Below are positions 5,052 through 35,736 of a stretch of DNA of 64,000 nt, one piece after another. The notes beneath the pieces were generated by a model, which worked only from the letters and a program-made list of their open reading frames with translations, had not been told where the DNA came from and did no database searches. Position 1 is the first letter of the stretch, and each line of letters starts with the position of its first letter. Source of the stretch: Escherichia phage vB_EcoM_3HA11; sequence record MN342150, one strand, 5' to 3'. Position numbers and translations under genes: made by a program.

Positions 5052-5405
5052 ATGGTAAGCGCGAGTATATTCATCAACCGTGGACTGCTTGCTATAGCCC
5101 ACTCTCATGCCCTCCACTTCGTTACAACTTCCTATGCCAAGCACAAGGCACTCGGGGAGTTCTACGGGGAACTGGAGGACTTGCTGGATACCTTTACAGA
5201 GGCATATATCGGCGCGGGTGGTGTATATGTCCCAGGGTTTGAGAATATTAAACTGTACAACCCAGATCCTATATCGTATGTCAACAGCGTTGTTATCGAC
5301 GTAAACGGAATTTATGGTCAATGTGACAGCCATCTTCAAAATACGCTCGATGAAATCAAAACTTTGTGCTATCAGACCATCTACAAACTGAAGCAATTGT
5401 CTTAA
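5052..5405 (+). CDS. hypothetical protein
   Basis: ORF with SD AGGAAA upstream. Confidence 0.45.
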   Translation: MVSASIFINRGLLAIAHSHALHFVTTSYAKHKALGEFYGELEDLLDTFTEAYIGAGGVYVPGFENIKLYNPDPISYVNSVVIDVNGIYGQCDSHLQNTLDEIKTLCYQTIYKLKQLS

Positions 5406-5467
5406 CTCAATAGAACATCCTTCAGGTTATAATTTGCCCATTCGTCATCAATAGGATACAGATAACA

Positions 5468-6085
5468 ATGGGCAAAATCTTTATACCTTCTCATTCGGAA
5501 GGTTGTCAAATCGCTGCAAAATTTCTACACAAACAAATGAATTGTGGTGCTGTGTTCGTAGAACCAAATTCATTCGATAATCGTGAATCCCCTGACGCCA
5601 TCGGGTTCAGACCTGGGGGTTGTTCTATATTAATGGAAGTGAAAGTTTCTCGTTCTGATTTCCTAACCGATAAAAAGAAACCACACAGAATGGATCCTTC
5701 AACAGGAATGGGGGCATACCGATTTTATGTTTGTCCTGCTGATGTGATCAAAGTTGAAGATCTCCCACCAAAGTGGGGATTATTATATTTCACTCCTCGG
5801 AAATCATTGAAGCCCGTTCACGTTCCGAATATGCAATATTCTTCGTTATCTTCTCCGGAACATTATGCAAAATATTTGTCCACAGCATTAGGCAAAAAGC
5901 GGTCGACAGATATTCCTCCTTACCTGTTAGGATATAAGCAGATGTTGGAAGAATTCGCCCACTTTGAACGAAATCAAGTCGCAGAGCAGAATATTCTATA
6001 TGGTGCATGGAGACAGCTTTGCATAGCTCAAAGTCGCGGTGTAAATTATAATGTGACAGAAGTATTCCAAAGGCCAAATATCTGA
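5468..6085 (+). CDS. PD-(D/E)xK nuclease-fold protein (putative)
   Basis: Motif ESPDAIGF...ILMEVKVSRSDF fits the D...E-x-K catalytic core; stop overlaps start of primase. Confidence 0.45.
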   Translation: MGKIFIPSHSEGCQIAAKFLHKQMNCGAVFVEPNSFDNRESPDAIGFRPGGCSILMEVKVSRSDFLTDKKKPHRMDPSTGMGAYRFYVCPADVIKVEDLPPKWGLLYFTPRKSLKPVHVPNMQYSSLSSPEHYAKYLSTALGKKRSTDIPPYLLGYKQMLEEFAHFERNQVAEQNILYGAWRQLCIAQSRGVNYNVTEVFQRPNI

Positions 6086-17593: not shown

Positions 17594-18397
17594 TTAAATG
17601 AAAATTTCAGTGACACTGTTAAATTTGACTTCATGTTCTTTCCCACACGAAGGACATTTAATTTTCGTCGCGTAACGGATACGAGGAATCTTTTTAAAGA
17701 AATCGTCGGATATATCTTGAACAATCTCAGATTCAATATTTTCCCCCACCCATTTAACAAATTCATCTTTGACACGTTGACGTTCTTTAGCAACATCAGG
17801 TGCTATGCCAGGCTCTGCCGGATTCTCTACTTTCCAAACCTGACCATCATCGTCATACAAACAATCAATAAATGTCGCGATCATTTGCTCCACAGATGAT
17901 GCTTCGTTGAGCACTGAGGCGTCCGAGAAGGACGGTTGACGCATCTTGATGTGATAGCCACCAGGGAGGTCAAATGTTTCCCTGAAGCCTTCTGGGGACA
18001 CGCATTTCACTTGGTTGAGGGGGATCGGTAAAACAAGTTCTTGACCACATTCTTTAAGGCCAGAAACTGGTTCTTCACCTTCATTTGTGTCGGATGGAAC
18101 TTTGTTGTTACATTTGTATCGTATCTTCATGACCTCGCCGATAGATATACAGCGCATCTTTAAAAATACTTCTTCAGTAACACCGATTGGCAGTTTACTA
18201 AAGGGAACCCCAGCGTCAACACAACTATCAAACAGTTGCTCCAGCGTCGCTACACGTTCACTCATAGGAGTGTTCGGATCAGCAACCTGAAGTAGCATGG
18301 TCTGTTGCCCAGCTGTGAAAGCGCGGTATTTAATCACCGTCGGCCAGAAATCACTTTTGTGTGTTCTCTCAGTTTTGGGCAATGATGGTAAATTCAT
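17594..18397 (-). CDS. late-expressed hypothetical protein with C-terminal zinc ribbon (CPSCGKEH); possibly baseplate/assembly
   Basis: Start moved to ATG at 18397 (SD GGAGAT); TATAAATA late-promoter motif about 25 nt upstream on the minus strand. Confidence 0.5.
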   Translation of the reverse strand: MNLPSLPKTERTHKSDFWPTVIKYRAFTAGQQTMLLQVADPNTPMSERVATLEQLFDSCVDAGVPFSKLPIGVTEEVFLKMRCISIGEVMKIRYKCNNKVPSDTNEGEEPVSGLKECGQELVLPIPLNQVKCVSPEGFRETFDLPGGYHIKMRQPSFSDASVLNEASSVEQMIATFIDCLYDDDGQVWKVENPAEPGIAPDVAKERQRVKDEFVKWVGENIESEIVQDISDDFFKKIPRIRYATKIKCPSCGKEHEVKFNSVTEIFI

Positions 18398-18424
18398 AAT
18401 GTATCTCCACGGTATATTGTAACC

Positions 18425-18433
18425 ATATTTATA
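18425..18433 (-). promoter_or_regulatory. T4-type late promoter core TATAAATA (minus strand)
   Basis: Exact TATAAATA on minus strand upstream of the ATG at 18397. Confidence 0.45.
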
Positions 18434-18446
18434 ATGAGGACCGAAA

Positions 18447-18971
18447 ATGCACGCGTTCTGTTTCAGTAAAGTTGGAGAACAACTTACCATTAATTATCCG
18501 GATACAAATACGGATTTCTTTGTATTGCTAACGGATTTCGCAAATAAATTGGGGATCAAGAATATCGCCATGACTGTGGACGATATGAAATTTGGTCGTC
18601 TGGGTGTAAAAGATTTATTGAATTACGGATTCAACGTAATCATCGTCGATCAGACATACAGCCCAATTGACGAGGAAGATGTTATTCCAGTTTGGGTTCA
18701 ACGAGACATAAACACTCTGGATAAGCATTATCCCGATTGTGTCATCATTGGCGAATTAATACCATATTTTCATAAACGTCGTCGGCTTGAATCAATTAAA
18801 AGTTATTTTCAAGATAGCGATGACGGATATAAAATGGATGTCCTTACGAGCGGTTGGGTTGTGAAGAATACCACAGGCAATGCCGACCGAATTACTTCCC
18901 GTCTTTATGAATATGTTAAAGAACGGGATTATGAACTGGAGAACAATAATGCCAAACGTAGAACGCGCTGA
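18447..18971 (+). CDS. hypothetical protein
   Basis: ORF with SD GAGGA. Confidence 0.45.
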   Translation: MHAFCFSKVGEQLTINYPDTNTDFFVLLTDFANKLGIKNIAMTVDDMKFGRLGVKDLLNYGFNVIIVDQTYSPIDEEDVIPVWVQRDINTLDKHYPDCVIIGELIPYFHKRRRLESIKSYFQDSDDGYKMDVLTSGWVVKNTTGNADRITSRLYEYVKERDYELENNNAKRRTR

Positions 18972-22225: not shown

Positions 22226-22252
22226 CACTAAAGCCCCTTCGGGGGCTTTTTA
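22226..22252. terminator. bidirectional terminator (AGCCCC-TTCG-GGGGCT plus TTTTT)
   Basis: Hairpin between convergent gp32 gene and the minus gene at 22250. Confidence 0.6.
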
Positions 22253-23194
22253 GTTTTTAACGACGTCCTGTAACAATCCGAGTAAACTACTCTTCTCAGA
22301 CGCCGTCAGGTTATCATTGCCTAATATATCCCTCTGGATGCCGATAGAGATCCTTTCGAAGTCTGCCAGGCTGATACCCGCCAAATTATTTACAAGCTGA
22401 TCGAGTTGCTTGTAGGCCAGTAGGGCTTCACCTGTAAAGTTTCCTTCCTTAATCTTTTTATACAGCTGTCCGGCTTTTGACGCTGCGGTTTCCCAATCTC
22501 CGGAAGCAAGAGCATCAGCAATGCCCAAAGGAAGAAAATCGCTGGCGAGGCTGCGCGTTTCATATTCAGTCTCCGATAATACTTTATTGTAAGAGAACGA
22601 TATATTGTACTGGTTAAATTGGTCGGCGGCACTTTTGTCGAGGTCGATGGAACTGAAGTTAATAGGATGAGCCTCAGTCACATAAACGCGATGAACAACC
22701 TGATCTTCCGTATCCATCTGCTCTATACAAATGTCTGTAACGAAGTCTTCATAATAACCCATCTTGGTTGTGTATGGGTCGAATATCAGGTTCTTCCATT
22801 TGTCCATGACCGACTTTTCATAATAATCGTTGGCGAGGAGGAACGACAACTCCAGATCAACGTTCGTCTTGTTATTTGGCATTTTAATGTGGTTGCCGTT
22901 GTTGGTCATGGGAGTAGTGTCAATCCCTGTACCAGGTAAAGATGCGACCATACACATCATTTGTAAGGAACGAGACGTCTGGTTTGTCCCTCCAAAGAAA
23001 GCGTTTACAATACGGGCGCTTTGTTTGAACAGATCCCCAAATGATGAAGATGAAGGATATGCGTTGCCGTCATTGGATAGAGTCGCATTAGAATCGAAAA
23101 TACCAGGCGGCAACGGGATTGTAACACGAAATCTGTTCTTGCGGGAAATCCCCCGCTGAAGCAATTGCGTTAGAAAATTGCGATAGTCTTCCAC
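22250..23194 (-). CDS. late-expressed hypothetical protein (probable virion/structural); start uncertain
   Basis: ORF runs to 23389 but then overlaps the divergent plus gene; a minus-strand TATAAATA lies at about 23229-23236 and GGAG-N8-GTG gives a start at 23194. Alternative starts 23389, 23350 or 22960. Confidence 0.4.
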   Translation of the reverse strand: MEDYRNFLTQLLQRGISRKNRFRVTIPLPPGIFDSNATLSNDGNAYPSSSSFGDLFKQSARIVNAFFGGTNQTSRSLQMMCMVASLPGTGIDTTPMTNNGNHIKMPNNKTNVDLELSFLLANDYYEKSVMDKWKNLIFDPYTTKMGYYEDFVTDICIEQMDTEDQVVHRVYVTEAHPINFSSIDLDKSAADQFNQYNISFSYNKVLSETEYETRSLASDFLPLGIADALASGDWETAASKAGQLYKKIKEGNFTGEALLAYKQLDQLVNNLAGISLADFERISIGIQRDILGNDNLTASEKSSLLGLLQDVVKN

Positions 23195-23228
23195 GATGAG
23201 GACTCCATTTAAATAATATATCTGCTGA

Positions 23229-23236
23229 TATTTATA
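23229..23236 (-). promoter_or_regulatory. T4-type late promoter core TATAAATA (minus strand)
   Basis: Exact TATAAATA on minus strand in the divergent intergenic region. Confidence 0.4.
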
Positions 23237-23248
23237 AGGAGTTGACAA

Positions 23249-23953
23249 ATGGCCAAGAACGCTATGGGTGAAGAAGACCCGTTGTTGCTTCCTGCCGAGA
23301 TGGACGCCCCAGAATTGGTCAAGCGTTACATCCGCAAATATCGTCAACATTTTGGACCAGAAGCGAAACGTAATATCCGTCGGTCTCACGTGTGGTTTAT
23401 GGAACGCGTATCGAAAGATGCCAATTTATCCCCCAACCACATGATGAAGGCGTTTGCTGAAAATAAACGTCCTGTTCAGGGTGTGCGCTATATTGTTGGT
23501 CGCATGTACTATTTCAAATATGATGCGCTGACCAAAGATGAACTCCCGTATTGGGATATGTATCCTCTTGTATTCTTCTTCAATTTTGTGAAGGGTGACG
23601 GGGTAAAATTTGGGGAACGTGGTGTGACCTATCTTTATGGTCTCAACCTTCATTATTTGCCACCAAAGCTCAGATTATTAGTGTTTGAAGATCTTATCAA
23701 GTTGAGGAACGAAAGAGCGTATCGTTCTAAAACTCGTTTGAGACTTACTTGGGATGCCCTGAAACGGTTCGCCAATCACCCTCTATACAACCATTGTGTG
23801 AAACTGTACCGCGCTGATCAATTTCGTTCACAGCTTTATGAGATTGAGCCTCAATACTGGGAAGTTGTTTTGTTTATGCGCACTGCTCGATTCCAGAAAC
23901 AGAGCCAGATGTCTGTTTGGAAAGACGCTCGTCGTAAACACAAAAATGGTTAG
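23249..23953 (+). CDS. hypothetical protein (late region; possibly head completion or DNA-end associated by position only)
   Basis: SD AAGGAG 8 nt before ATG; divergent from a late-promoter gene, an arrangement seen for T4 genes 4 and 53. Confidence 0.5.
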   Translation: MAKNAMGEEDPLLLPAEMDAPELVKRYIRKYRQHFGPEAKRNIRRSHVWFMERVSKDANLSPNHMMKAFAENKRPVQGVRYIVGRMYYFKYDALTKDELPYWDMYPLVFFFNFVKGDGVKFGERGVTYLYGLNLHYLPPKLRLLVFEDLIKLRNERAYRSKTRLRLTWDALKRFANHPLYNHCVKLYRADQFRSQLYEIEPQYWEVVLFMRTARFQKQSQMSVWKDARRKHKNG

Positions 23954-26185: not shown

Positions 26186-26257
26186 TTTAACTCAGAAGCA
26201 TTCAATAGATGAAGGGGTTGCTATAATAGCAGCTCCTTTTGTTTATTGGAGCATGTC

Positions 26258-26920
26258 ATGTCTTATTCGCTCAAAGGGCTGTTGAAGCGCCCTGTGCATT
26301 TGTTTGTCAAACCACCTGCTGTAGAAGGGGAATATTCGGCACGAGGAGAGTTGTATTACATTAAAGGCTCCAATGGTAGTGGTAAGTCTACTGTGCCCTC
26401 TTATTTGGCGGAGAATGATCCTCAGGCGTATGTCGTAACCCATAACAGTAAGATCATGCTCACGGTTTGTCCATCTTACAATATTGTCTGTGTCGGTAAA
26501 TATGACAAGTCTAAGTCCAAAGGGGTTGATTCTCTGAAGGATACTGAGCAGATGTTGTTCGCGTTGTCTATTTCTGACCAACCAGAATACCTGAAATATG
26601 ATGTGATTTTCGAAGGCATCATTCCGTCTACATTATTGAGTTCTTGGATCCCCCGCCTGACACGCCCACCACGTGAATTGGTCGTCCTCTTTATGGATAC
26701 CCCTCTTGAAACCTGTATTGCCCGTGTTAAATCGCGTAACGGTGGCGCAGACTTCAATGAAAGTCTGGTGGTCGAGAAGTGGGAGCGCGTTCACAACCAT
26801 CGGGGGCGGCATAAAGAGTTGTTCCCTACCGTGTGTGCGGGTATGATGAAGTCTCACGGTCTAACTGTAGACCAAGCTGTAATGGCGTTCCTCCTCCGTG
26901 ACTTTGGGAGCATTGACTAA
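26258..26920 (+). CDS. P-loop kinase (candidate nucleotide or DNA-base kinase)
   Basis: Walker A GSNGSGKST; first gene of a translationally coupled operon; its stop overlaps the start of the hydroxymethylase gene. Confidence 0.55.
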   Translation: MSYSLKGLLKRPVHLFVKPPAVEGEYSARGELYYIKGSNGSGKSTVPSYLAENDPQAYVVTHNSKIMLTVCPSYNIVCVGKYDKSKSKGVDSLKDTEQMLFALSISDQPEYLKYDVIFEGIIPSTLLSSWIPRLTRPPRELVVLFMDTPLETCIARVKSRNGGADFNESLVVEKWERVHNHRGRHKELFPTVCAGMMKSHGLTVDQAVMAFLLRDFGSID

Positions 26921-27966
26921 TGGAAATTAAAGCTATCAATAACAACGACATGCTGAAACAGGCTGTCTTGGCTATCCGTGAATACGGGATTGAATCTGAT
27001 CCTGGCAACGCGGAGATCAACACTGACGGCACCCGCTTTCTTGATGGTGTGACTATCACCGTCAGTGATATCCGTGACCGCTGGTTATCCGTTGAAGGTC
27101 GCAACTCATCGGCCATCGCAGCTATCGGTGAGACTTTCTGGGTGCTGGCTGGGCGCAATGACCTGAAGTTCCTGTCACGTGTCCTGCCCCGCGCTGCCAA
27201 CTTCTCCGACGATGGCCTAACATGGCGAGCCGCTTATGGGCCGCGCCTGTACGCCCATGGTCAGTTACAGAGCGTCATCAACCGTCTCCGCAAAAACATC
27301 AACACCCGTCAGGCGTATCTCACCATCTATGATCCGTCTCTGGACTCTGATGTTGGTCTGGCCAAGCACAACGGCTCAAACGAAGCGAAGACCAAAGACA
27401 TGGTGTGTAACCTGGCTCTGTTATTTGCTGTCGTTGAAGGTCGTCTGAACCTGACGGTCATCAACCGCTCACAAGATGTCCTGTGGGGTATGAGTTCAAT
27501 CAACTTCATTGAGTTCTCTATCCTTCAGGAAGTGATCGCGCAGGTGCTGGATGTAGACGTCGGCCAGTACAAGCTGTTCTCTAACAATCTTCATTACTAC
27601 AACAATGAAGTCAGCCAGAAGCAGCTGGGTAAGATCACGAAGGACACCAAAGTAGAAGCTGGGTTCATCAACTCCATGATTCACTTCACGAACGTGACCA
27701 ACCAGAACCATATCCGCAATCTGTTCACTGGTGTGCTTCATCACTGTGATATCGGTAGCCCGTGGGAAACTGTGGTCGCCCACCTGAAGGAGTACGATGC
27801 TGATCGCGGCCTGATCGTACAGATGGCATACTGCCTGTACTGCAAGCTGAACGACAAGCTCATCAACATGAACCTGATTCAGGATCATGGCCTGAACATT
27901 GCACTCACTCACTCTCCGGTTGACCGCAAGATCGTTGATCCAAAGTTCCTGGAAGGTGCGTTATGA
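26920..27966 (+). CDS. thymidylate synthase-family pyrimidine hydroxymethylase (gp42-like; base specificity uncertain)
   Basis: Blocks GETFWVLAGRND, DMVCNLA (catalytic Cys without the P-C-H of true TS, as in T4 dCMP hydroxymethylase DFMCTNT), NRSQDVLWG and GQYKLFSNNLHYY; 348 aa. Confidence 0.65.
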   Translation: MEIKAINNNDMLKQAVLAIREYGIESDPGNAEINTDGTRFLDGVTITVSDIRDRWLSVEGRNSSAIAAIGETFWVLAGRNDLKFLSRVLPRAANFSDDGLTWRAAYGPRLYAHGQLQSVINRLRKNINTRQAYLTIYDPSLDSDVGLAKHNGSNEAKTKDMVCNLALLFAVVEGRLNLTVINRSQDVLWGMSSINFIEFSILQEVIAQVLDVDVGQYKLFSNNLHYYNNEVSQKQLGKITKDTKVEAGFINSMIHFTNVTNQNHIRNLFTGVLHHCDIGSPWETVVAHLKEYDADRGLIVQMAYCLYCKLNDKLINMNLIQDHGLNIALTHSPVDRKIVDPKFLEGAL

Positions 27967-28532
27967 TGTATCCAAACCTTGAATTCTTTACGGGGCGTAA
28001 GCGCTCCGGCAAGGACTTCTGTTTGGAGTCCCTGATCAGCTACCACCATCTACAGGGAGACAAGGACATTCAACGCCTGTCTTTCTCGGATGAGCTGCGC
28101 CGTGTTGCCAACTACATCTACCCGTGGCTGCCTGAGGAGGTGGAGGATGCTGTGAAGGACGTTTCATTCATACACCCCGATAACCCCAAGGGCTTAACTC
28201 CACGGCAGATCTGGCTTCATCTCGGCAGCGATACGGGCTTGCGTTACGTACAGCCTGATCTGTTCCTGGCGTTCTTCAAGCGCTTCCAGCTTCCTCTGGT
28301 AGAGCAGAACCCTCACGTCCATTATATCGTGAGCGACCTGCGCACCCCCCAGGAATATGAATGGGCGCTGAGTACGAAATGTCCTATCACCCGCATTTCA
28401 AAGGCCGACCGCGCTGGTATCATAGAGGACGATATAGAGGCTTTCATTGATAAGATGGAAGTTGATTATGAATTTGTCAATCCGTTTGAAGGTTGGCAAC
28501 CGTTCGTCAAATTTTATAGGGATCGGAAATGA
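27963..28532 (+). CDS. 1: deoxynucleoside monophosphate kinase (T4 gp1-like)
   Basis: P-loop GRKRSGKDF matches the T4 gp1 GVKRSGKDT pattern; ATGA overlap with the upstream gene. Confidence 0.65.
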   Translation: MMYPNLEFFTGRKRSGKDFCLESLISYHHLQGDKDIQRLSFSDELRRVANYIYPWLPEEVEDAVKDVSFIHPDNPKGLTPRQIWLHLGSDTGLRYVQPDLFLAFFKRFQLPLVEQNPHVHYIVSDLRTPQEYEWALSTKCPITRISKADRAGIIEDDIEAFIDKMEVDYEFVNPFEGWQPFVKFYRDRK

Positions 28533-29077
28533 TCACAACAGAGCATATTAAAAGTCTGCTCGAACTTCAAAAGGCCACCAACGTGGCCTATTTTGGGGAA
28601 GAGTGGAAGAATGTATGGAGTCAGAACGCGATCATCAACTCCATCTATCGCGAGTGGGCGGAGTTCCTTGACGAAACCACCCGCGACTGGAAGGTCTATG
28701 GTAACGACATCGGGTTTCACCATGCGAACGCAGTCTATGAACTGGTGGACGTGGTTCACTTCATGCTGTGTTTCATCCTCGTCGATCGCACCAAAGGAGA
28801 GATTGAAGAAGAAATGGAGAATCTTGGCCGACGGCTCGTCCCAGGGACGAGTTCAGTAGGGCATCGCAATGTTACGTATCGCCTTGGGCAGTTCATGAAC
28901 GATCCTTGCGTCGAGACTCTCATGGTCTTCCTATCGACTGTGTGTTCTTACATGGAGATCGACATTGAGACCTACATGCTGGCACACAAGCGCAAAAACG
29001 ATCGCAATCGGCTGCGTGCTGCTGGCGGCGCGAATTACGATAAGTCCGCAGAAACCCCTCTGACCCTGGAGTTCTAA
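28529..29077 (+). CDS. 56: dCTPase/dUTPase-type all-alpha NTP pyrophosphatase (T4 gp56-like)
   Basis: ELVDVVHFMLCFIL block matches T4 gp56 ELVDIFHFVLNMFV; 182 aa. Confidence 0.65.
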   Translation: MITTEHIKSLLELQKATNVAYFGEEWKNVWSQNAIINSIYREWAEFLDETTRDWKVYGNDIGFHHANAVYELVDVVHFMLCFILVDRTKGEIEEEMENLGRRLVPGTSSVGHRNVTYRLGQFMNDPCVETLMVFLSTVCSYMEIDIETYMLAHKRKNDRNRLRAAGGANYDKSAETPLTLEF

Positions 29078-29607
29078 TGTTTACAGTTGTCGTATCATAT
29101 TATGCGGAACATGCCCCGCAAATGGCAGAGAACTTTGCTGAGTTTATTAAACCTGGCAGACATGTCGTTATCGCGACCAAATTCAACAAAGAACCAGATG
29201 GTGCGGCTACTGTAACGCAACATATTACAACTCCAGAGCCGGAAACCCTTTTCAAACGTATTGAAGATTTTGCTTTTGGCGGGGAAGAAATTCCAGAGTC
29301 ATTACAGCATATCTATTTTGAAGATGCGATATATTATGTTCATGCTATTCCAAAGGATGTTACAACTGAACAAATGATGTATATCCTGAATATCGCATTG
29401 AATGTTTCTTGTGTCAACAGGGCACAGCACAATCGTCTGCGTAATATGTATTTAACAGAACGCGGGGGTTCCGAAATTAACGATGAAAAACTCCCGTCAA
29501 TAATGGCGATTCACGAAGCAATCAATATATTGTCCAAGAAAGTCTTGGGCACCGATTTATTAATTACGATCAACAAGCAAGAGGAAACGAAATGGCCGAT
29601 TCATTGA
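29077..29607 (+). CDS. hypothetical protein (176 aa) within the nucleotide-modification operon
   Basis: ORF coupled to dCTPase (TAATG overlap) and overlapping the uvsX start. Confidence 0.45.
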   Translation: MFTVVVSYYAEHAPQMAENFAEFIKPGRHVVIATKFNKEPDGAATVTQHITTPEPETLFKRIEDFAFGGEEIPESLQHIYFEDAIYYVHAIPKDVTTEQMMYILNIALNVSCVNRAQHNRLRNMYLTERGGSEINDEKLPSIMAIHEAINILSKKVLGTDLLITINKQEETKWPIH

Positions 29608-30677
29608 TGGCTCGCATGCTCAAGACAGCAAAGAAACTGGACCCGAATGCCGAAGTGCTGTCAAAGACCGATGCGCTGAAGCCTGACATTATTTGCAGTA
29701 CGGGTATTCCTATTCTGAATTTGGCCTGGTCCGGTCGTATTGATGGTGGTCTGATATCAGGCATCAAACAGTTGGTGGGGGATTCTCGTACATTCAAAAC
29801 CATGTTTGGGCTGGTAGATGTTAAGGCTTACATGGATAAGTTTCCTGATGCAATTTGTATCTTCGCGGATTCCGAAGGCGGTGCGAATGAAAACTACTGG
29901 ACATCTATGGGTATTGACATGGACCGTGTCTTGTATCTGCCGATTGAAAACGTTGAAAAGACGAAGATCAAGCTGACACAGCTTCTGAATGATGCTCAGA
30001 AAGGTGACAAGATCATCGTATTCATCGACTCAATCAGCCAGTTGCCGTCTACCAAAGAAGTTGATGATGCTATCGCGGGCAAAGACACACAAGATATGAC
30101 TCGCGCTCGCGCTCTCAATAGTTTTTGGCGTGTTATCACTCCGTTGGTCACTGAAAAGAAATTCGTTTTGGTATGGATCAACTCGTACTATGATGAAATC
30201 GGGAACCAATACGCCGAGCCGAACATCAAAGGCGGTAAACAGGGGTTCCTGTCTTCTAACCAATTGTGGTTCATCACGCGTTCTCAAGTAAAAGAAGACA
30301 AAGACCTTTTGGGATGGCAGTTTACAGTCAACATCATGAAAGGTCGCTTTGTCCGTGAAAAATCCAAGTTCCCTGTCACTGTGTTGTATGAAGGCGGTAT
30401 TGACCGTTGGTCCGGTATGTTAGAAATTGCGCGCATGCTGGGGTATGTGGATTTGGTGAGTGGTTCTTGGTATCAACGTACTGCCAAAGGCGGGTTTGAT
30501 CCAGAAAAAGAAAAGAAATATCGTAAGGCAGAGCTGGGGGATGACTTCTGGTATCCGTTGCTGGAAAACCCAGACTTTGTTGACGATGTGAACAACATGT
30601 TCGGTATCTCTCAGAGTTCGGTTATGCCTGCAGATATGCTGGAGCGCCTCGATAATGTCATCAAAACAACCGAGTAA
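29592..30677 (+). CDS. uvsX: recombinase UvsX (RecA family)
   Basis: PDAICIFADSE, IVFIDSISQL, DMTRARALNSFWRVITP and REKSKF blocks match T4 UvsX. Confidence 0.9.
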   Translation: MADSLMARMLKTAKKLDPNAEVLSKTDALKPDIICSTGIPILNLAWSGRIDGGLISGIKQLVGDSRTFKTMFGLVDVKAYMDKFPDAICIFADSEGGANENYWTSMGIDMDRVLYLPIENVEKTKIKLTQLLNDAQKGDKIIVFIDSISQLPSTKEVDDAIAGKDTQDMTRARALNSFWRVITPLVTEKKFVLVWINSYYDEIGNQYAEPNIKGGKQGFLSSNQLWFITRSQVKEDKDLLGWQFTVNIMKGRFVREKSKFPVTVLYEGGIDRWSGMLEIARMLGYVDLVSGSWYQRTAKGGFDPEKEKKYRKAELGDDFWYPLLENPDFVDDVNNMFGISQSSVMPADMLERLDNVIKTTE

Positions 30678-30984
30678 TATTGCAGGGGGAGGAGACTCCC
30701 CCGTTAATTACAAAATCATCGACCCTGGTTCTGATCAGTTAGCTATTATCGAAATAACGGAAGGCAAGTTCCGCGGTGTTCAATTTCGTATAGGAAAAGT
30801 GGGTGTCCATGTAGACAATGGAGAACCTCGGTTATCCTTTACGACGGATATATTGAAGAAACCATGGCGTTTGTTATTTGTTAATTTGAAAGAAAATGAC
30901 TTGTTCACTGTGGTGTCTGGGGATATCTTAGTTGATCTGATACAGCAAAATGCTCAGGATTACAACAAAATTTTGGTGGGGTAG
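30655..30984 (+). CDS. hypothetical protein (109 aa; occupies the position of T4 gene 40)
   Basis: ORF between uvsX and gene 41. Confidence 0.4.
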   Translation: MSSKQPSNIAGGGDSPVNYKIIDPGSDQLAIIEITEGKFRGVQFRIGKVGVHVDNGEPRLSFTTDILKKPWRLLFVNLKENDLFTVVSGDILVDLIQQNAQDYNKILVG

Positions 30985-30990
30985 TTGCCA

Positions 30991-32415
30991 ATGTTACTCG
31001 AATCTGTCGTGCTTTCCCAATTAATCTACAATGAAGAATATCAAAGAAAGATCCAGCCGTATTTGAAAGCCGATTATTTCGATAACGAAGGCGAGAAGAT
31101 TATATTTGGTCTTATAGACCATTACACTTGCGAATATAATGCTCGTCCTTCGGTTGAAGCGCTGTCTATTATGCTGGAAAAGACTTCGCTCAATGAACAC
31201 GTATTTGATCAGGCCATTTCTGCTCTTGAAAATATTAATGACAATACTTTTCATCAGGACTGGTTAGTAAAAGAAACAGAAAGTTGGGCGCGTCAGAAAG
31301 CTGTTCATAACGCAATTAGACAAGCCGTTAACATATACGGCGATGAGAAACGCAAAGATGAGATGAACAACATCCCTACTTTGCTGCAAGAAGCCCTGGC
31401 GATTCAGTTTGATTCATATCTCGGTCACATCTATTGGGAAATGGCTGAGCAACAATACGACCACATGAACTCTAATGAAGCGAAGATCCCTTTCGCCGTA
31501 GAGATATTCAACAAAGCAACTCGTGGTGGTGTTGGCAAGAAGACATTGAACATCGTTACAGGCGCAATCAACGCAGGTAAGACAACAACTCTGATTGATT
31601 TGGCTGCTGGTTATGCCGAGCAGGGGTTGAATGTGTTCGTATTCACCCTCGAAGTGGCCGAGAACGTCTGGCGACACCGCCTTGATGCCCGTATGATGCG
31701 CAGGGACTTCGAGTCCTTAGAGAAGCTCTCACGGCACGAGTATATTGCCACCATACAAAAACTGAGAACCCGTCAAGACGGTTCCATGAAGGGTGATATT
31801 GTTATCAAGGAATATCCTTCGGGCGCGGGGCATACAGGTTTGTATCGTCGTGATATTCTTGATTATGCGACTGTAACAGGAATTACACCCGATGTCATCA
31901 TTATTGACTACTTGGGGGAATCTGCGTCTTCTCGCCTTCCCGCTCACTTGATGCAAAACACCAACGTGTATTATACATCCGTGGCGCGAGAATTCCGTGC
32001 TCTTGGGTTTGAGTTTGATTGCCCTGTTTGGACAGGTATGCAGTTTAACCGTGAAACGCAATCAGCAACTGATGGTAATATCAGTGACTTGGCAGACGCT
32101 ATCGGTATCCCGAAGGTCGCTGACTTTATCATGGCGTTTTATGCCCCAGACGAACTGGCGGCTGTTAAGAAAGCCAGAGCATCAATCTTGAAAAATCGTT
32201 ATGCCAACAAGCAGAAACTCAAATCATTCTTGTTTGGTATGGACCAAGATAAACAGATCTTGTTCGACTTGGACTGGAATGAAGTCAAACGAGACCTGAC
32301 TGATGAAGAAGCCCGTTATGTTGAGAACGTGCATATCAAGCATGACTTGAATAAAACGGGGGACTCAAATGATGTTAAAAAAGCCGAGACCGTCAATAGT
32401 TGGAATTTCGGTTAA
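30991..32415 (+). CDS. 41: replicative DNA helicase (DnaB family, T4 gp41-like)
   Basis: Walker A GAINAGKTT, DnaB-like C-terminal RecA fold; ATG at 30991 (track ORF begins at TTG 30985). Confidence 0.88.
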   Translation: MLLESVVLSQLIYNEEYQRKIQPYLKADYFDNEGEKIIFGLIDHYTCEYNARPSVEALSIMLEKTSLNEHVFDQAISALENINDNTFHQDWLVKETESWARQKAVHNAIRQAVNIYGDEKRKDEMNNIPTLLQEALAIQFDSYLGHIYWEMAEQQYDHMNSNEAKIPFAVEIFNKATRGGVGKKTLNIVTGAINAGKTTTLIDLAAGYAEQGLNVFVFTLEVAENVWRHRLDARMMRRDFESLEKLSRHEYIATIQKLRTRQDGSMKGDIVIKEYPSGAGHTGLYRRDILDYATVTGITPDVIIIDYLGESASSRLPAHLMQNTNVYYTSVAREFRALGFEFDCPVWTGMQFNRETQSATDGNISDLADAIGIPKVADFIMAFYAPDELAAVKKARASILKNRYANKQKLKSFLFGMDQDKQILFDLDWNEVKRDLTDEEARYVENVHIKHDLNKTGDSNDVKKAETVNSWNFG

Positions 32416-35112: not shown

Positions 35113-35127
35113 TTGAGGAATATATTA

Positions 35128-35736
35128 ATGTCACTGAAAACATTTTTAAACCGCCTGTTCAGCACTGTCGAGGCCAATTTAACTGCAGGTTTGGATAAAC
35201 TCACAGATACCGAGAAGCGTTTGAATCTGGCTGCACGGAAACTATCTGATGAAATCCGGCGTTTAGAAGAAGCCCGTGTAACCAATGTCCACCATGGCGT
35301 TAAGATGAAGAAGACCGCTGATGAAAATCTGGCTGAAGCCATCAAGCGAGAAACCATTTTGAAAGATGCGATCGCTCGTGGAGTAACTCCTACCCGCGCC
35401 GAAGCTTTAATCATACTCCACCGCCGTCGTATTGGTGAAGCCTTGCTGGATAAAGTCAAAGAGATCGAATCTGGCAGCGTGAAATTGAATTCGGCGATTG
35501 TTGAATTGGGTGACAAACTGGACGCTGTTAAGTCTAATCTCGAATTGGTCCGAATTCAGAAAGAATCGAATGATCTTGGGTTAACTTTACCGGAAGACAT
35601 CGATTACGCGGCTGGAATGATTAATGTCGATGTTGATGCTATCCTTCGGGAAGCTGAAATCGCAGATTCCAATTATTCTACCAATAGCCCTTCAGCAACA
35701 GAAGCGGACAATTATCTGGCAAATTTATCAAAATAA
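35128..35736 (+). CDS. PspA/IM30-like coiled-coil protein (putative)
   Basis: N-terminal amphipathic helix MSLKTFLNRLFSTVEANL followed by long heptad-like helices, reminiscent of PspA/Vipp1; ATG at 35128 with SD GAGGAA. Confidence 0.4.
   Translation: MSLKTFLNRLFSTVEANLTAGLDKLTDTEKRLNLAARKLSDEIRRLEEARVTNVHHGVKMKKTADENLAEAIKRETILKDAIARGVTPTRAEALIILHRRRIGEALLDKVKEIESGSVKLNSAIVELGDKLDAVKSNLELVRIQKESNDLGLTLPEDIDYAAGMINVDVDAILREAEIADSNYSTNSPSATEADNYLANLSK

Follow-up and report, generated by a model that had tools for sequence, protein, structure and literature searches.

We suggest that the 176-aa protein encoded at positions 29077 to 29607 on the plus strand of the window (the whole 64,000-nucleotide stretch of DNA analysed here) acts without catalysis of its own, as an accessory or regulator of an operon for nucleotide supply and recombination, and is specific to the Ackermannviridae. 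We give this low-confidence assignment a probability of about 0.35. It is based on the fold class, the context and the evolutionary rate of the protein, and the points in its favour are the operon context, the lack of a match to any catalytic family, the reconstitution of the DNA modification of this phage group without the gene, the evolutionary rate and the concentration of conserved residues in the helical half of the protein. The original prediction had taken the gene, called gene X in the following, as a prime candidate for a novel modification or modification-associated function because of its map position, which recalls that of the β-glucosyltransferase gene (b-gt) in T4. This step from position to modification is unsupported, since the modified base of these phages, 5-NeOmdU, has been reconstituted without gene X, the protein resembles no glycosyltransferase, kinase, aGPT-Pplase or PLP enzyme, its predicted ACT/ferredoxin-like fold is generic and the context is uninformative. 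Map position alone is no evidence for a modification enzyme.

Gene X, its family and its neighbours

Gene X is an exact open reading frame with an ATG start, and its product is matched over the full length by both Pfam (PF24021, ACT_phage) and PHROG (PHROG 3839). The match to PF24021, the “Phage ACT-like domain”, has an E-value of 1.6e-86 and a score of 288.9 bits (curated cut-off 27), and it aligns residues 1-176 with positions 1-176 of the profile, while the PHROG 3839 match has an E-value of 3e-90. When the protein was used as a tblastn query, 269 phage genomes were matched and 267 of them covered at least 80% of it. Pairwise dN/dS values of gene X were between 0.07 and 0.19 among relatives with unsaturated synonymous sites. 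From the full-length family matches, the coverage and the dN/dS values together, gene X is judged to be a genuine gene under purifying selection and no chance reading frame. Its family has been catalogued before, with no function assigned, so the gene itself is not new, and its orthologues CBA120 orf069 and SeF3a_114 are both annotated as “hypothetical protein”. In our literature search we found no paper mentioning PF24021 or PHROG 3839 and no transcriptome study of CBA120, and one phage transposon-mutagenesis preprint made no mention of Kuttervirus, CBA120, Vi01 or Det7.

The window genome is that of a Kuttervirus, a ViI-like Salmonella phage of the Ackermannviridae. A 3-kb stretch round gene X is 99% identical to the Salmonella phages SeF3a and barely, with 271 phage records matched, and the phages barely and rabagast encode a 100% identical protein in a region annotated as hypothetical protein. 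Among 40 sampled rows of the tblastn search, 39 had the match on a “hypothetical protein” or on an unannotated record, the exception being H152, where residues 103-176 only were matched with no annotated feature beneath; a dUTPase-type gene and a recombinase were also listed in most of these sampled rows. Practically all members of the Ackermannviridae, a phage family used for biocontrol and therapy, have kept gene X intact. The protein family is nevertheless tiny. Eight clusters came from a word-indexed search through 5.8 billion proteins. When 1.84 billion representatives were searched exhaustively with a HMMER profile, 18 proteins passed E ≤ 0.001, including several fragments and two long proteins (917 and 1,702 aa) that were matched in several short stretches and are taken to be spurious. 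IMG/VR contributed 16 loci, all on contigs of 152-162 kb, and a metagenome scan contributed two further loci.

All members whose context was examined are found in Ackermannviridae-type genomes. Miltonvirus 3M, a Taipeivirus, two Logan contigs and one metagenome contig all share the slot order NTPase, gene X, UvsX of the window, which we regard as an empirical property of the family and not as a formal definition. A structure search of the viral models in BFVD gave weak matches to uncharacterised proteins of Erwinia phage Bue1, Vibrio phage Kuja, Aeromonas phage phiA8-29 and Vibrio phage VAP7, which belong to other Ackermannviridae genera. In Vibrio phage D495 the slot is occupied by a 204-aa open reading frame that sequence methods do not link to the family and that does not overlap uvsX. 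Outside the Ackermannviridae, T4 and Stenotrophomonas phage IME-SM1 have UvsX without gene X. The family was not seen by sequence search in other phages that hypermodify hmdU, and the 10-108 kb region examined in PhiW-14 held no homologue of any gene of the block described below.

Gene X lies in a block of eight plus-strand genes (26246 to 32415) that all abut or overlap, successively by 1, 4, 4, 1, 16, 23 and 0 nt. The first gene (26246 to 26920, start codon uncertain) encodes a 5-hmdU DNA kinase (PF18748, E = 1.7e-111) orthologous to ViI gp67, for which kinase activity has been demonstrated (PMC8989533). It is followed by genes for a thymidylate-synthase-family enzyme (26920 to 27966; PF00303, E = 3.4e-15; PHROG 3676, E = 5.7e-183), a dNMP kinase (27963 to 28532; PHROG 139, E = 8.9e-48) and an all-alpha NTP pyrophosphohydrolase of the dUTPase_2 type (28529 to 29077; PF08761, E = 2.5e-08; PHROG 173, E = 1e-40), referred to below as the upstream NTPase. 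Downstream of gene X are uvsX (29592 to 30677; PF00154 and PF21134, T4_UVSX_C; PHROG 97, E = 3.9e-96), encoding a RecA-like recombinase, a gene for a 109-aa protein of PHROG 3998 without a Pfam match (30655 to 30984), and, as the last gene, one for a DnaB-like replicative helicase of the gp41 type (30985 to 32415; PF03796, E = 1.2e-14; PHROG 19, E = 6.2e-104). A terminator-like hairpin is located at 26211-26239, just before the block. Inside the block there is no T4-type late promoter motif (TATAAATA); its only two occurrences in the window are on the other strand, upstream of structural genes.

The coupling of gene X to both of its neighbours was correctly predicted. On the upstream side the stop and start codons overlap as TAATG (29075-29079), so that the TAA of the upstream NTPase gene shares an A with the gene X ATG, and a GGAG motif resembling a Shine-Dalgarno sequence can be read at 29068-29071 (plus strand), 5 nt before the ATG. 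On the downstream side the final 16 nt of gene X are shared with the start of uvsX (ATG at 29592, GAGG at 29581-29584). Such tight coupling is however common to the whole block and not specific to gene X.

The junction with uvsX is dual-coding (29580 to 29607, plus strand): the last nine codons of gene X, which read EETKWPIH followed by the stop codon, contain the ribosome-binding site of uvsX (AGAGGAA) as well as its codons 1-5. The two glutamates are encoded by GAGGAA of the ribosome-binding site, the lysine-tryptophan pair gives the uvsX ATG, and the later codons correspond to UvsX residues 2-5. This overlap is kept in 20 of the 20 related loci compared, which range from Kuttervirus to Miltonvirus and include two metagenomic relatives. 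The residue before the tryptophan is K, Q or R in these 20 loci, and also T and A in the metagenomic members P0011 and P0017; in all three variants that were checked in the DNA (AAA, CAA and AGA) its codon ends in the A that completes the ATG. One natural genome (L018) has TGA in place of TGG at the tryptophan, which makes the protein four residues shorter and leaves uvsX intact. The conserved tail EE(V/T)KWP(V/I)H was considered as a partner-binding tail and rejected, since it coincides with the ribosome-binding site, start and first codons of uvsX and since L018 has its stop at the tryptophan. We ascribe the conservation of the C-terminal tail to the overlapping ribosome-binding site and start codon.

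Comparison with T4 and the chemistry of ViI-like phages

The gene order in T4 is 42 / b-gt / segA / uvsX / 40 / 41, and the original prediction had read the window as the corresponding series 42 / x / uvsX / 40 / 41, with gene X between a dCTPase gene and uvsX. The T4 order as such, uvsX and the gp41-type helicase gene are borne out by our analysis. The gene taken as 42 is the one for the thymidylate-synthase-family enzyme three genes upstream of gene X, and its product shows merely 21% identity to T4 gp42 over 145 aa. The 109-aa protein occupies the slot of T4 gene 40 but is not homologous to gp40; BLASTP against T4 gp40, which corresponds to PF11113, gave no alignment. The neighbour read as a dCTPase, our upstream NTPase, does fall in the same Pfam family (PF08761) as T4 gp56, but its substrate is expected to be dUTP or dTTP rather than dCTP. 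The dUTPase of CBA120 has been proposed to act as a dTTPase too (PMC3184105).

The chemistry of the phage group bears directly on this reading of the locus. ViI-like phages carry 5-(2-aminoethoxy)methyl-dU (5-NeOmdU) at approximately 40% of the T positions, formed post-replicatively from 5-hmdU (PMC5889632), and the remaining approximately 60% of the T positions in the virion DNA are ordinary thymidine. The group makes hmdU and then 5-NeOmdU, not hydroxymethyl-C. The CBA120 orthologue of the thymidylate-synthase-family enzyme clusters with hmdU synthases and has been assigned to dUMP hydroxymethylation (PMC3184105), and from this clustering and the hmdU chemistry it follows that the presumed gene 42 encodes a dUMP hydroxymethylase and not a dCMP hydroxymethylase. 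The T4-based reading of the locus in terms of hydroxymethyl-C is thereby corrected to hmdU chemistry. 5-NeOmdU has been reconstituted in lysates with the five ViI products gp67, gp160, gp226, gp243 and gp247, without gene X (PMC5889632), and individual steps have been carried out with the purified kinase, gp247 and gp226 (PMC8989533). Therefore the chemistry at the DNA level does not require gene X.

What gene X and T4 b-gt share is an approximate map position, with a hydroxymethylase of the thymidylate synthase family upstream and uvsX downstream. The idea of a positional replacement thus holds loosely for position and fails for function on the grounds of sequence, size and fold. Even the position differs in detail, because T4 has segA between b-gt and uvsX, while in the window the hydroxymethylase gene and gene X are separated by two additional genes. 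T4 β-glucosyltransferase matches PF09198 at E = 9.4e-98 and the gene X protein does not match it at all; the former is a GT-B enzyme of about 350 aa with two Rossmann-like domains, whereas the latter is predicted to consist of one four-stranded ferredoxin-like domain and helices. Moreover, the substrate of the T4 enzyme, hydroxymethyl-C DNA, is not made by the phage group of the window. The earlier statement that gene X shows no Rossmann or GT-B motifs agrees with the lack of any such Pfam match, a BLASTP E-value of 1.0 against T4 β-glucosyltransferase and a predicted fold of β-α-β-β-α-β plus helices. There is likewise no Pfam or NCBIfam similarity between the gene X protein and the enzymes of thymidine hypermodification (5-HMUDK, aGPT-Pplase and PLP decarboxylase).

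Predicted fold and conservation of the gene X protein

An AlphaFold2 model based on an alignment of 15 sequences has a mean pLDDT of 79. Residues 1-95 (29077 to 29361, plus strand) are predicted to form an N-terminal ACT/ferredoxin-like domain with strands at residues 2-10, 30-38, 44-52 and 79-90 and helices at residues 13-27 and 55-67, for which the block-mean pLDDT values are 85-94. This is the acidic and less conserved half of the protein. The C-terminal part (29365 to 29577, plus strand) is modelled as helices 97-128, 142-157 and 161-167, with block-mean pLDDT values of 91-85 for residues 91-110 and approximately 50-70 thereafter, so that helix 97-128 is confident in its first half and confidence in the rest is moderate or low. 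The protein is mildly acidic, with pI values of 4.6-5.6 in the family and 4.1-5.3 for the N-terminal domain (4.9 in the window protein). DNA binding or DNA mimicry was considered on account of the charge and set aside, as a pI of about 4.6-5.6 is only mildly acidic and not diagnostic.

A remote-homology search and a structure prediction had been proposed as a check, and they delivered the family PF24021 and a fold, but no similarity to a glycosyltransferase, a kinase, an aGPT-Pplase or a PLP enzyme. Structure searches with the model returned only generic ferredoxin-like matches, in which bS6, CutA and MgtC-C score equally with ACT domains, and found no structural match for the C-terminal helical part. 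PDB sequence searches gave noise only, whether the protein itself or a profile served as the query, and no catalytic family was found for the protein by Pfam, NCBIfam or PDB sequence searches. Nor did the homology searches find any clear homology to a housekeeping or structural protein of unrelated function, the finding that had been named as one that would speak against a modification-associated role.

ACT/ferredoxin-like folds are usually binding or regulatory modules and not catalysts, and ligand-binding ACT domains typically have a glycine in the β1-α1 loop. In the gene X family this loop lacks a conserved glycine; close members have A-E-(H/N) there, and the sequence is not conserved across the family. 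The ACT-family Pfam models did not match the protein at E ≤ 0.1. Regulatory ACT domains (the GcvR-like 1u8s, the IlvN small subunit 2lvw/6wo1 and the stand-alone 1zpv) have 5-13% sequence identity to the gene X protein and lack a counterpart of its conserved helical C-terminal half. We consider “ACT-like” a fair label for the predicted fold only, which does not imply membership in the ligand-binding ACT family.

In an alignment of 15 diverse members, residues E63, R115, N150, V156, G158, W173 and H176 are invariant, and Y86, P92, N105, C112 and E170 are nearly so, with C112 replaced by alanine in member P0019. The helical half holds most of the conserved residues together with the motif AINILSxKVLGxELL, and this concentration suggests a protein-binding surface. 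A 9-bp hairpin at 29531-29551 was examined as a regulatory RNA that might lie behind AINILSxKVLG and was rejected, because synonymous changes destroy it outside Kuttervirus; the motif is accordingly regarded as a feature of the protein.

The evolutionary rate of gene X was compared with that of its neighbours in four genomes (Limestonevirus-like, Taipeivirus, Miltonvirus and Vibrio phage D495, in this order). Identity to the window is 57%, 41%, 24% and undetectable for gene X, against 78%, 78%, 66% and 51% for UvsX, 87%, 59%, 42% and 33% for the upstream NTPase, and 93%, 86%, 64% and 39% for the dNMP kinase. By these comparisons gene X is the fastest-evolving gene of the eight-gene block. Such a pattern is more in keeping with an adaptor or regulator than with a core enzyme.

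Candidate functions

If the gene X protein is an accessory protein of the operon, the conserved helical face (N105, C112, R115, N150, V156 and G158) would dock on a conserved phage partner, most likely a co-expressed enzyme of pyrimidine precursor synthesis and otherwise UvsX. Dimerisation or binding of a small ligand might be the task of the fast-evolving acidic ACT-like domain. The protein could then tune or organise the supply of hmdUTP that replaces dTTP for replication, and it would not modify DNA chemically. Several considerations weigh against this proposal: the polar residues E63, C112, R115 and N150 could form an active site, the protein matches no canonical ACT model and lacks the usual glycine in the β1-α1 loop, and the fold match is generic, with only moderate confidence in the helical half of the model. 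The context does not separate the nucleotide enzymes from UvsX as the link of gene X, because the gene order is the same in every relative examined. We also tried the context of distant relatives as a discriminator, but the order was the same in viral, metagenome and Logan contigs and in GenBank phages. As a regulator or organiser of the switch from dTTP to hmdUTP, or as a blocker of a host enzyme, the protein would fill a gap in a hypermodification pathway that is otherwise well worked out.

A somewhat different possibility, which we find doubtful, is that the protein serves UvsX specifically, being made in step with it and modulating the formation of its filaments or its loading on hmdU DNA. 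The conserved 3' overlap described above, the position of gene X directly before uvsX in all contexts that were examined, and the fact that the tblastn matches of a divergent member run into the recombinase gene in most sampled rows are all in line with such a role. But its coupling to the upstream NTPase gene through TAATG is just as close, in a block that is coupled throughout, and the slot gene of D495 lacks the uvsX overlap. A separate UvsY-like mediator is encoded elsewhere in Ackermannviridae genomes (PMC10892097, PMC10458263), so that gene X is no UvsY analogue, in agreement with the lack of a match to the Pfam UvsY family. T4 UvsY is likewise small and genetically associated with UvsX, but no homology to the gene X protein was detected. 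T4 and IME-SM1 have UvsX without gene X, and the acidic character of the protein makes DNA binding unlikely.

By analogy with the thymidylate-synthetase inhibitor reported for Bacillus hmU phages and with Ugi of PBS2, the gene X protein might bind and block a host protein that disturbs hmdU DNA or the switch of the pools, such as thymidylate synthase or a DNA glycosylase that acts on 5-hmU. It is small and acidic with a predicted fold that is not that of an enzyme, and it is encoded by the fastest-evolving gene of an operon that redirects the pyrimidine supply. Furthermore, CBA120 keeps labelled thymidine out of its DNA (PMC3184105), although the proposed dTTPase already explains this exclusion. 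We consider such an inhibitor unlikely, as the protein has no similarity to known inhibitors, its charge is mild and not like that of a DNA mimic, and its invariant residues, located on the helices, would rather be expected to contact a partner that is itself conserved.

That gene X encodes a novel DNA-modifying enzyme which replaces T4 β-glucosyltransferase in function as well as position is, in our view, very improbable. It is true that the gene lies between a hydroxymethylase-family gene and uvsX like b-gt, that some polar residues of the protein (E63, C112, R115 and N150) are nearly invariant, and that the conversion of 5-hmdU to thymidine in such phages was called unknown in 2018 (PMC5889632). 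However, no transferase family is matched, and with 176 aa against the 351 aa of the T4 enzyme the protein cannot have the GT-B fold. ViI and CBA120, close relatives of the window phage, carry a modification that is no sugar and for which five other gene products are responsible, C112 is alanine in P0019, and the family is absent, by sequence search, from the other hmdU-hypermodifying phages.

Hardly credible is the further idea that the protein decides the fate of 5-hmdU, either as an enzyme or specificity subunit (with E63, C112 and R115) for the conversion of activated 5-hmdU to thymidine or by setting the approximately 40:60 split between 5-NeOmdU and T: it would account for plain thymidine at about 60% of the T positions of ViI-like DNA in spite of the exclusion of exogenous thymidine by CBA120, but the family is confined to the Ackermannviridae while the conversion has been described for PhiW-14 and SP10 (PMC5889632), C112 is not invariant, and the fold does not correspond to a known enzyme. 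A looser association of gene X with modification, for example through tuning of the hmdUTP and dTTP pools, may nonetheless hold. Gene X is a reasonable knockout target for research on DNA modification of the ViI type.

Coupling in the eight-gene block and the naming of its kinase

Eight genes, running from the 5-hmdU DNA kinase to the gp41-type helicase, follow each other in series between positions 26246 and 32415, and all of them abut or overlap their neighbours (1, 4, 4, 1, 16, 23, and 0 nt). Directly upstream of the first gene we found a terminator-like hairpin (26211-26239), and the arrangement suggests a single translationally coupled operon uniting nucleotide supply, recombination, and replication.

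The first gene of the block (26246-26920) encodes the 5-hmdU DNA kinase, an orthologue of ViI gp67 (PF18748, E 1.7e-111). The same PF18748 kinase is labelled "terminase small subunit" in the annotated Salmonella phage SeF3a, in Serratia phage 3M, in Klebsiella phi1_175010, and in the PhiW-14 RefSeq record, and PHROG 800 carries the same name; as applied to a 5-hmdU DNA kinase, this label looks like a propagated misannotation. The thymidylate-synthase-family protein encoded at 26920-27966 is 348 aa long, with a Pfam TS match limited to residues 69-235 and approximately 110 residues at the C-terminus without assignment.

Variation at the gene preceding uvsX

When the window was compared with the Limestonevirus-like locus L013, the kinase, the hydroxymethylase, the dNMP kinase, and the NTPase were each 87-93% identical, while identity fell to 57% at the 176-aa ORF (29077-29607) and was 78% for UvsX downstream, followed by 70% and 90%. 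A different constraint on the ORF could account for the drop, and so could a recombination boundary where the NTPase gene meets the ORF.

A natural variant of the 3' end is present in IMGVR_UViG_2974546820_000001 (locus L018, 6001-6519), where the codon of the otherwise invariant W173 reads TGA and not TGG, leaving the ORF four codons shorter, and where uvsX starts with ATG ACC. Either the C-terminal tail of the ORF is dispensable or the TGA is a sequencing error. Within the window's ORF, approximately 40 nt before the uvsX start, lies a 9-bp hairpin, TGTCCAAGA-AAG-TCTTGGGCA (29531-29551), which is followed by a T-rich stretch and was found only in Kuttervirus genomes.

In the Ackermannviridae-like Vibrio phage D495 (OZ196227, locus L026; features noted at 36-1220 and 5378-5992) the 5-hmdU kinase is of another type, with a PF18723 helical domain, and is positioned three genes upstream of the hydroxymethylase. 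In the slot before uvsX, D495 encodes a protein of 204 aa that has no sequence match, and the gene for this protein does not overlap uvsX but is separated from it by 8 nt.

Late-promoter-type motifs and other genes in the window

The T4 late-promoter-type motif TATAAATA occurs twice in the window, at 18426-18433 (-) and 23229-23236 (-), directly upstream of two minus-strand ORFs (17594-18490 and 22250-23389). From their position against the SeF3a annotation, these ORFs appear to encode the baseplate hub and the tail tube. Two copies are not above chance (expected mean 1.9), and despite this count their placement is suggestive.

ORF 22250-23389 (-) overlaps ORF 23249-23953 (+) in antisense by approximately 140 nt. 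Their apparent counterparts in SeF3a are the genes for the tail tube and the DNA end protector, for which the overlap is likewise annotated, and in one of the two ORFs the start codon may have been placed too far upstream. The window also encodes a PspA/IM30-like protein (35113-35736; PF04012, E 3.9e-08, at 33.6 bits slightly below the 33.9-bit cut-off), annotated in SeF3a as "shock protein A".
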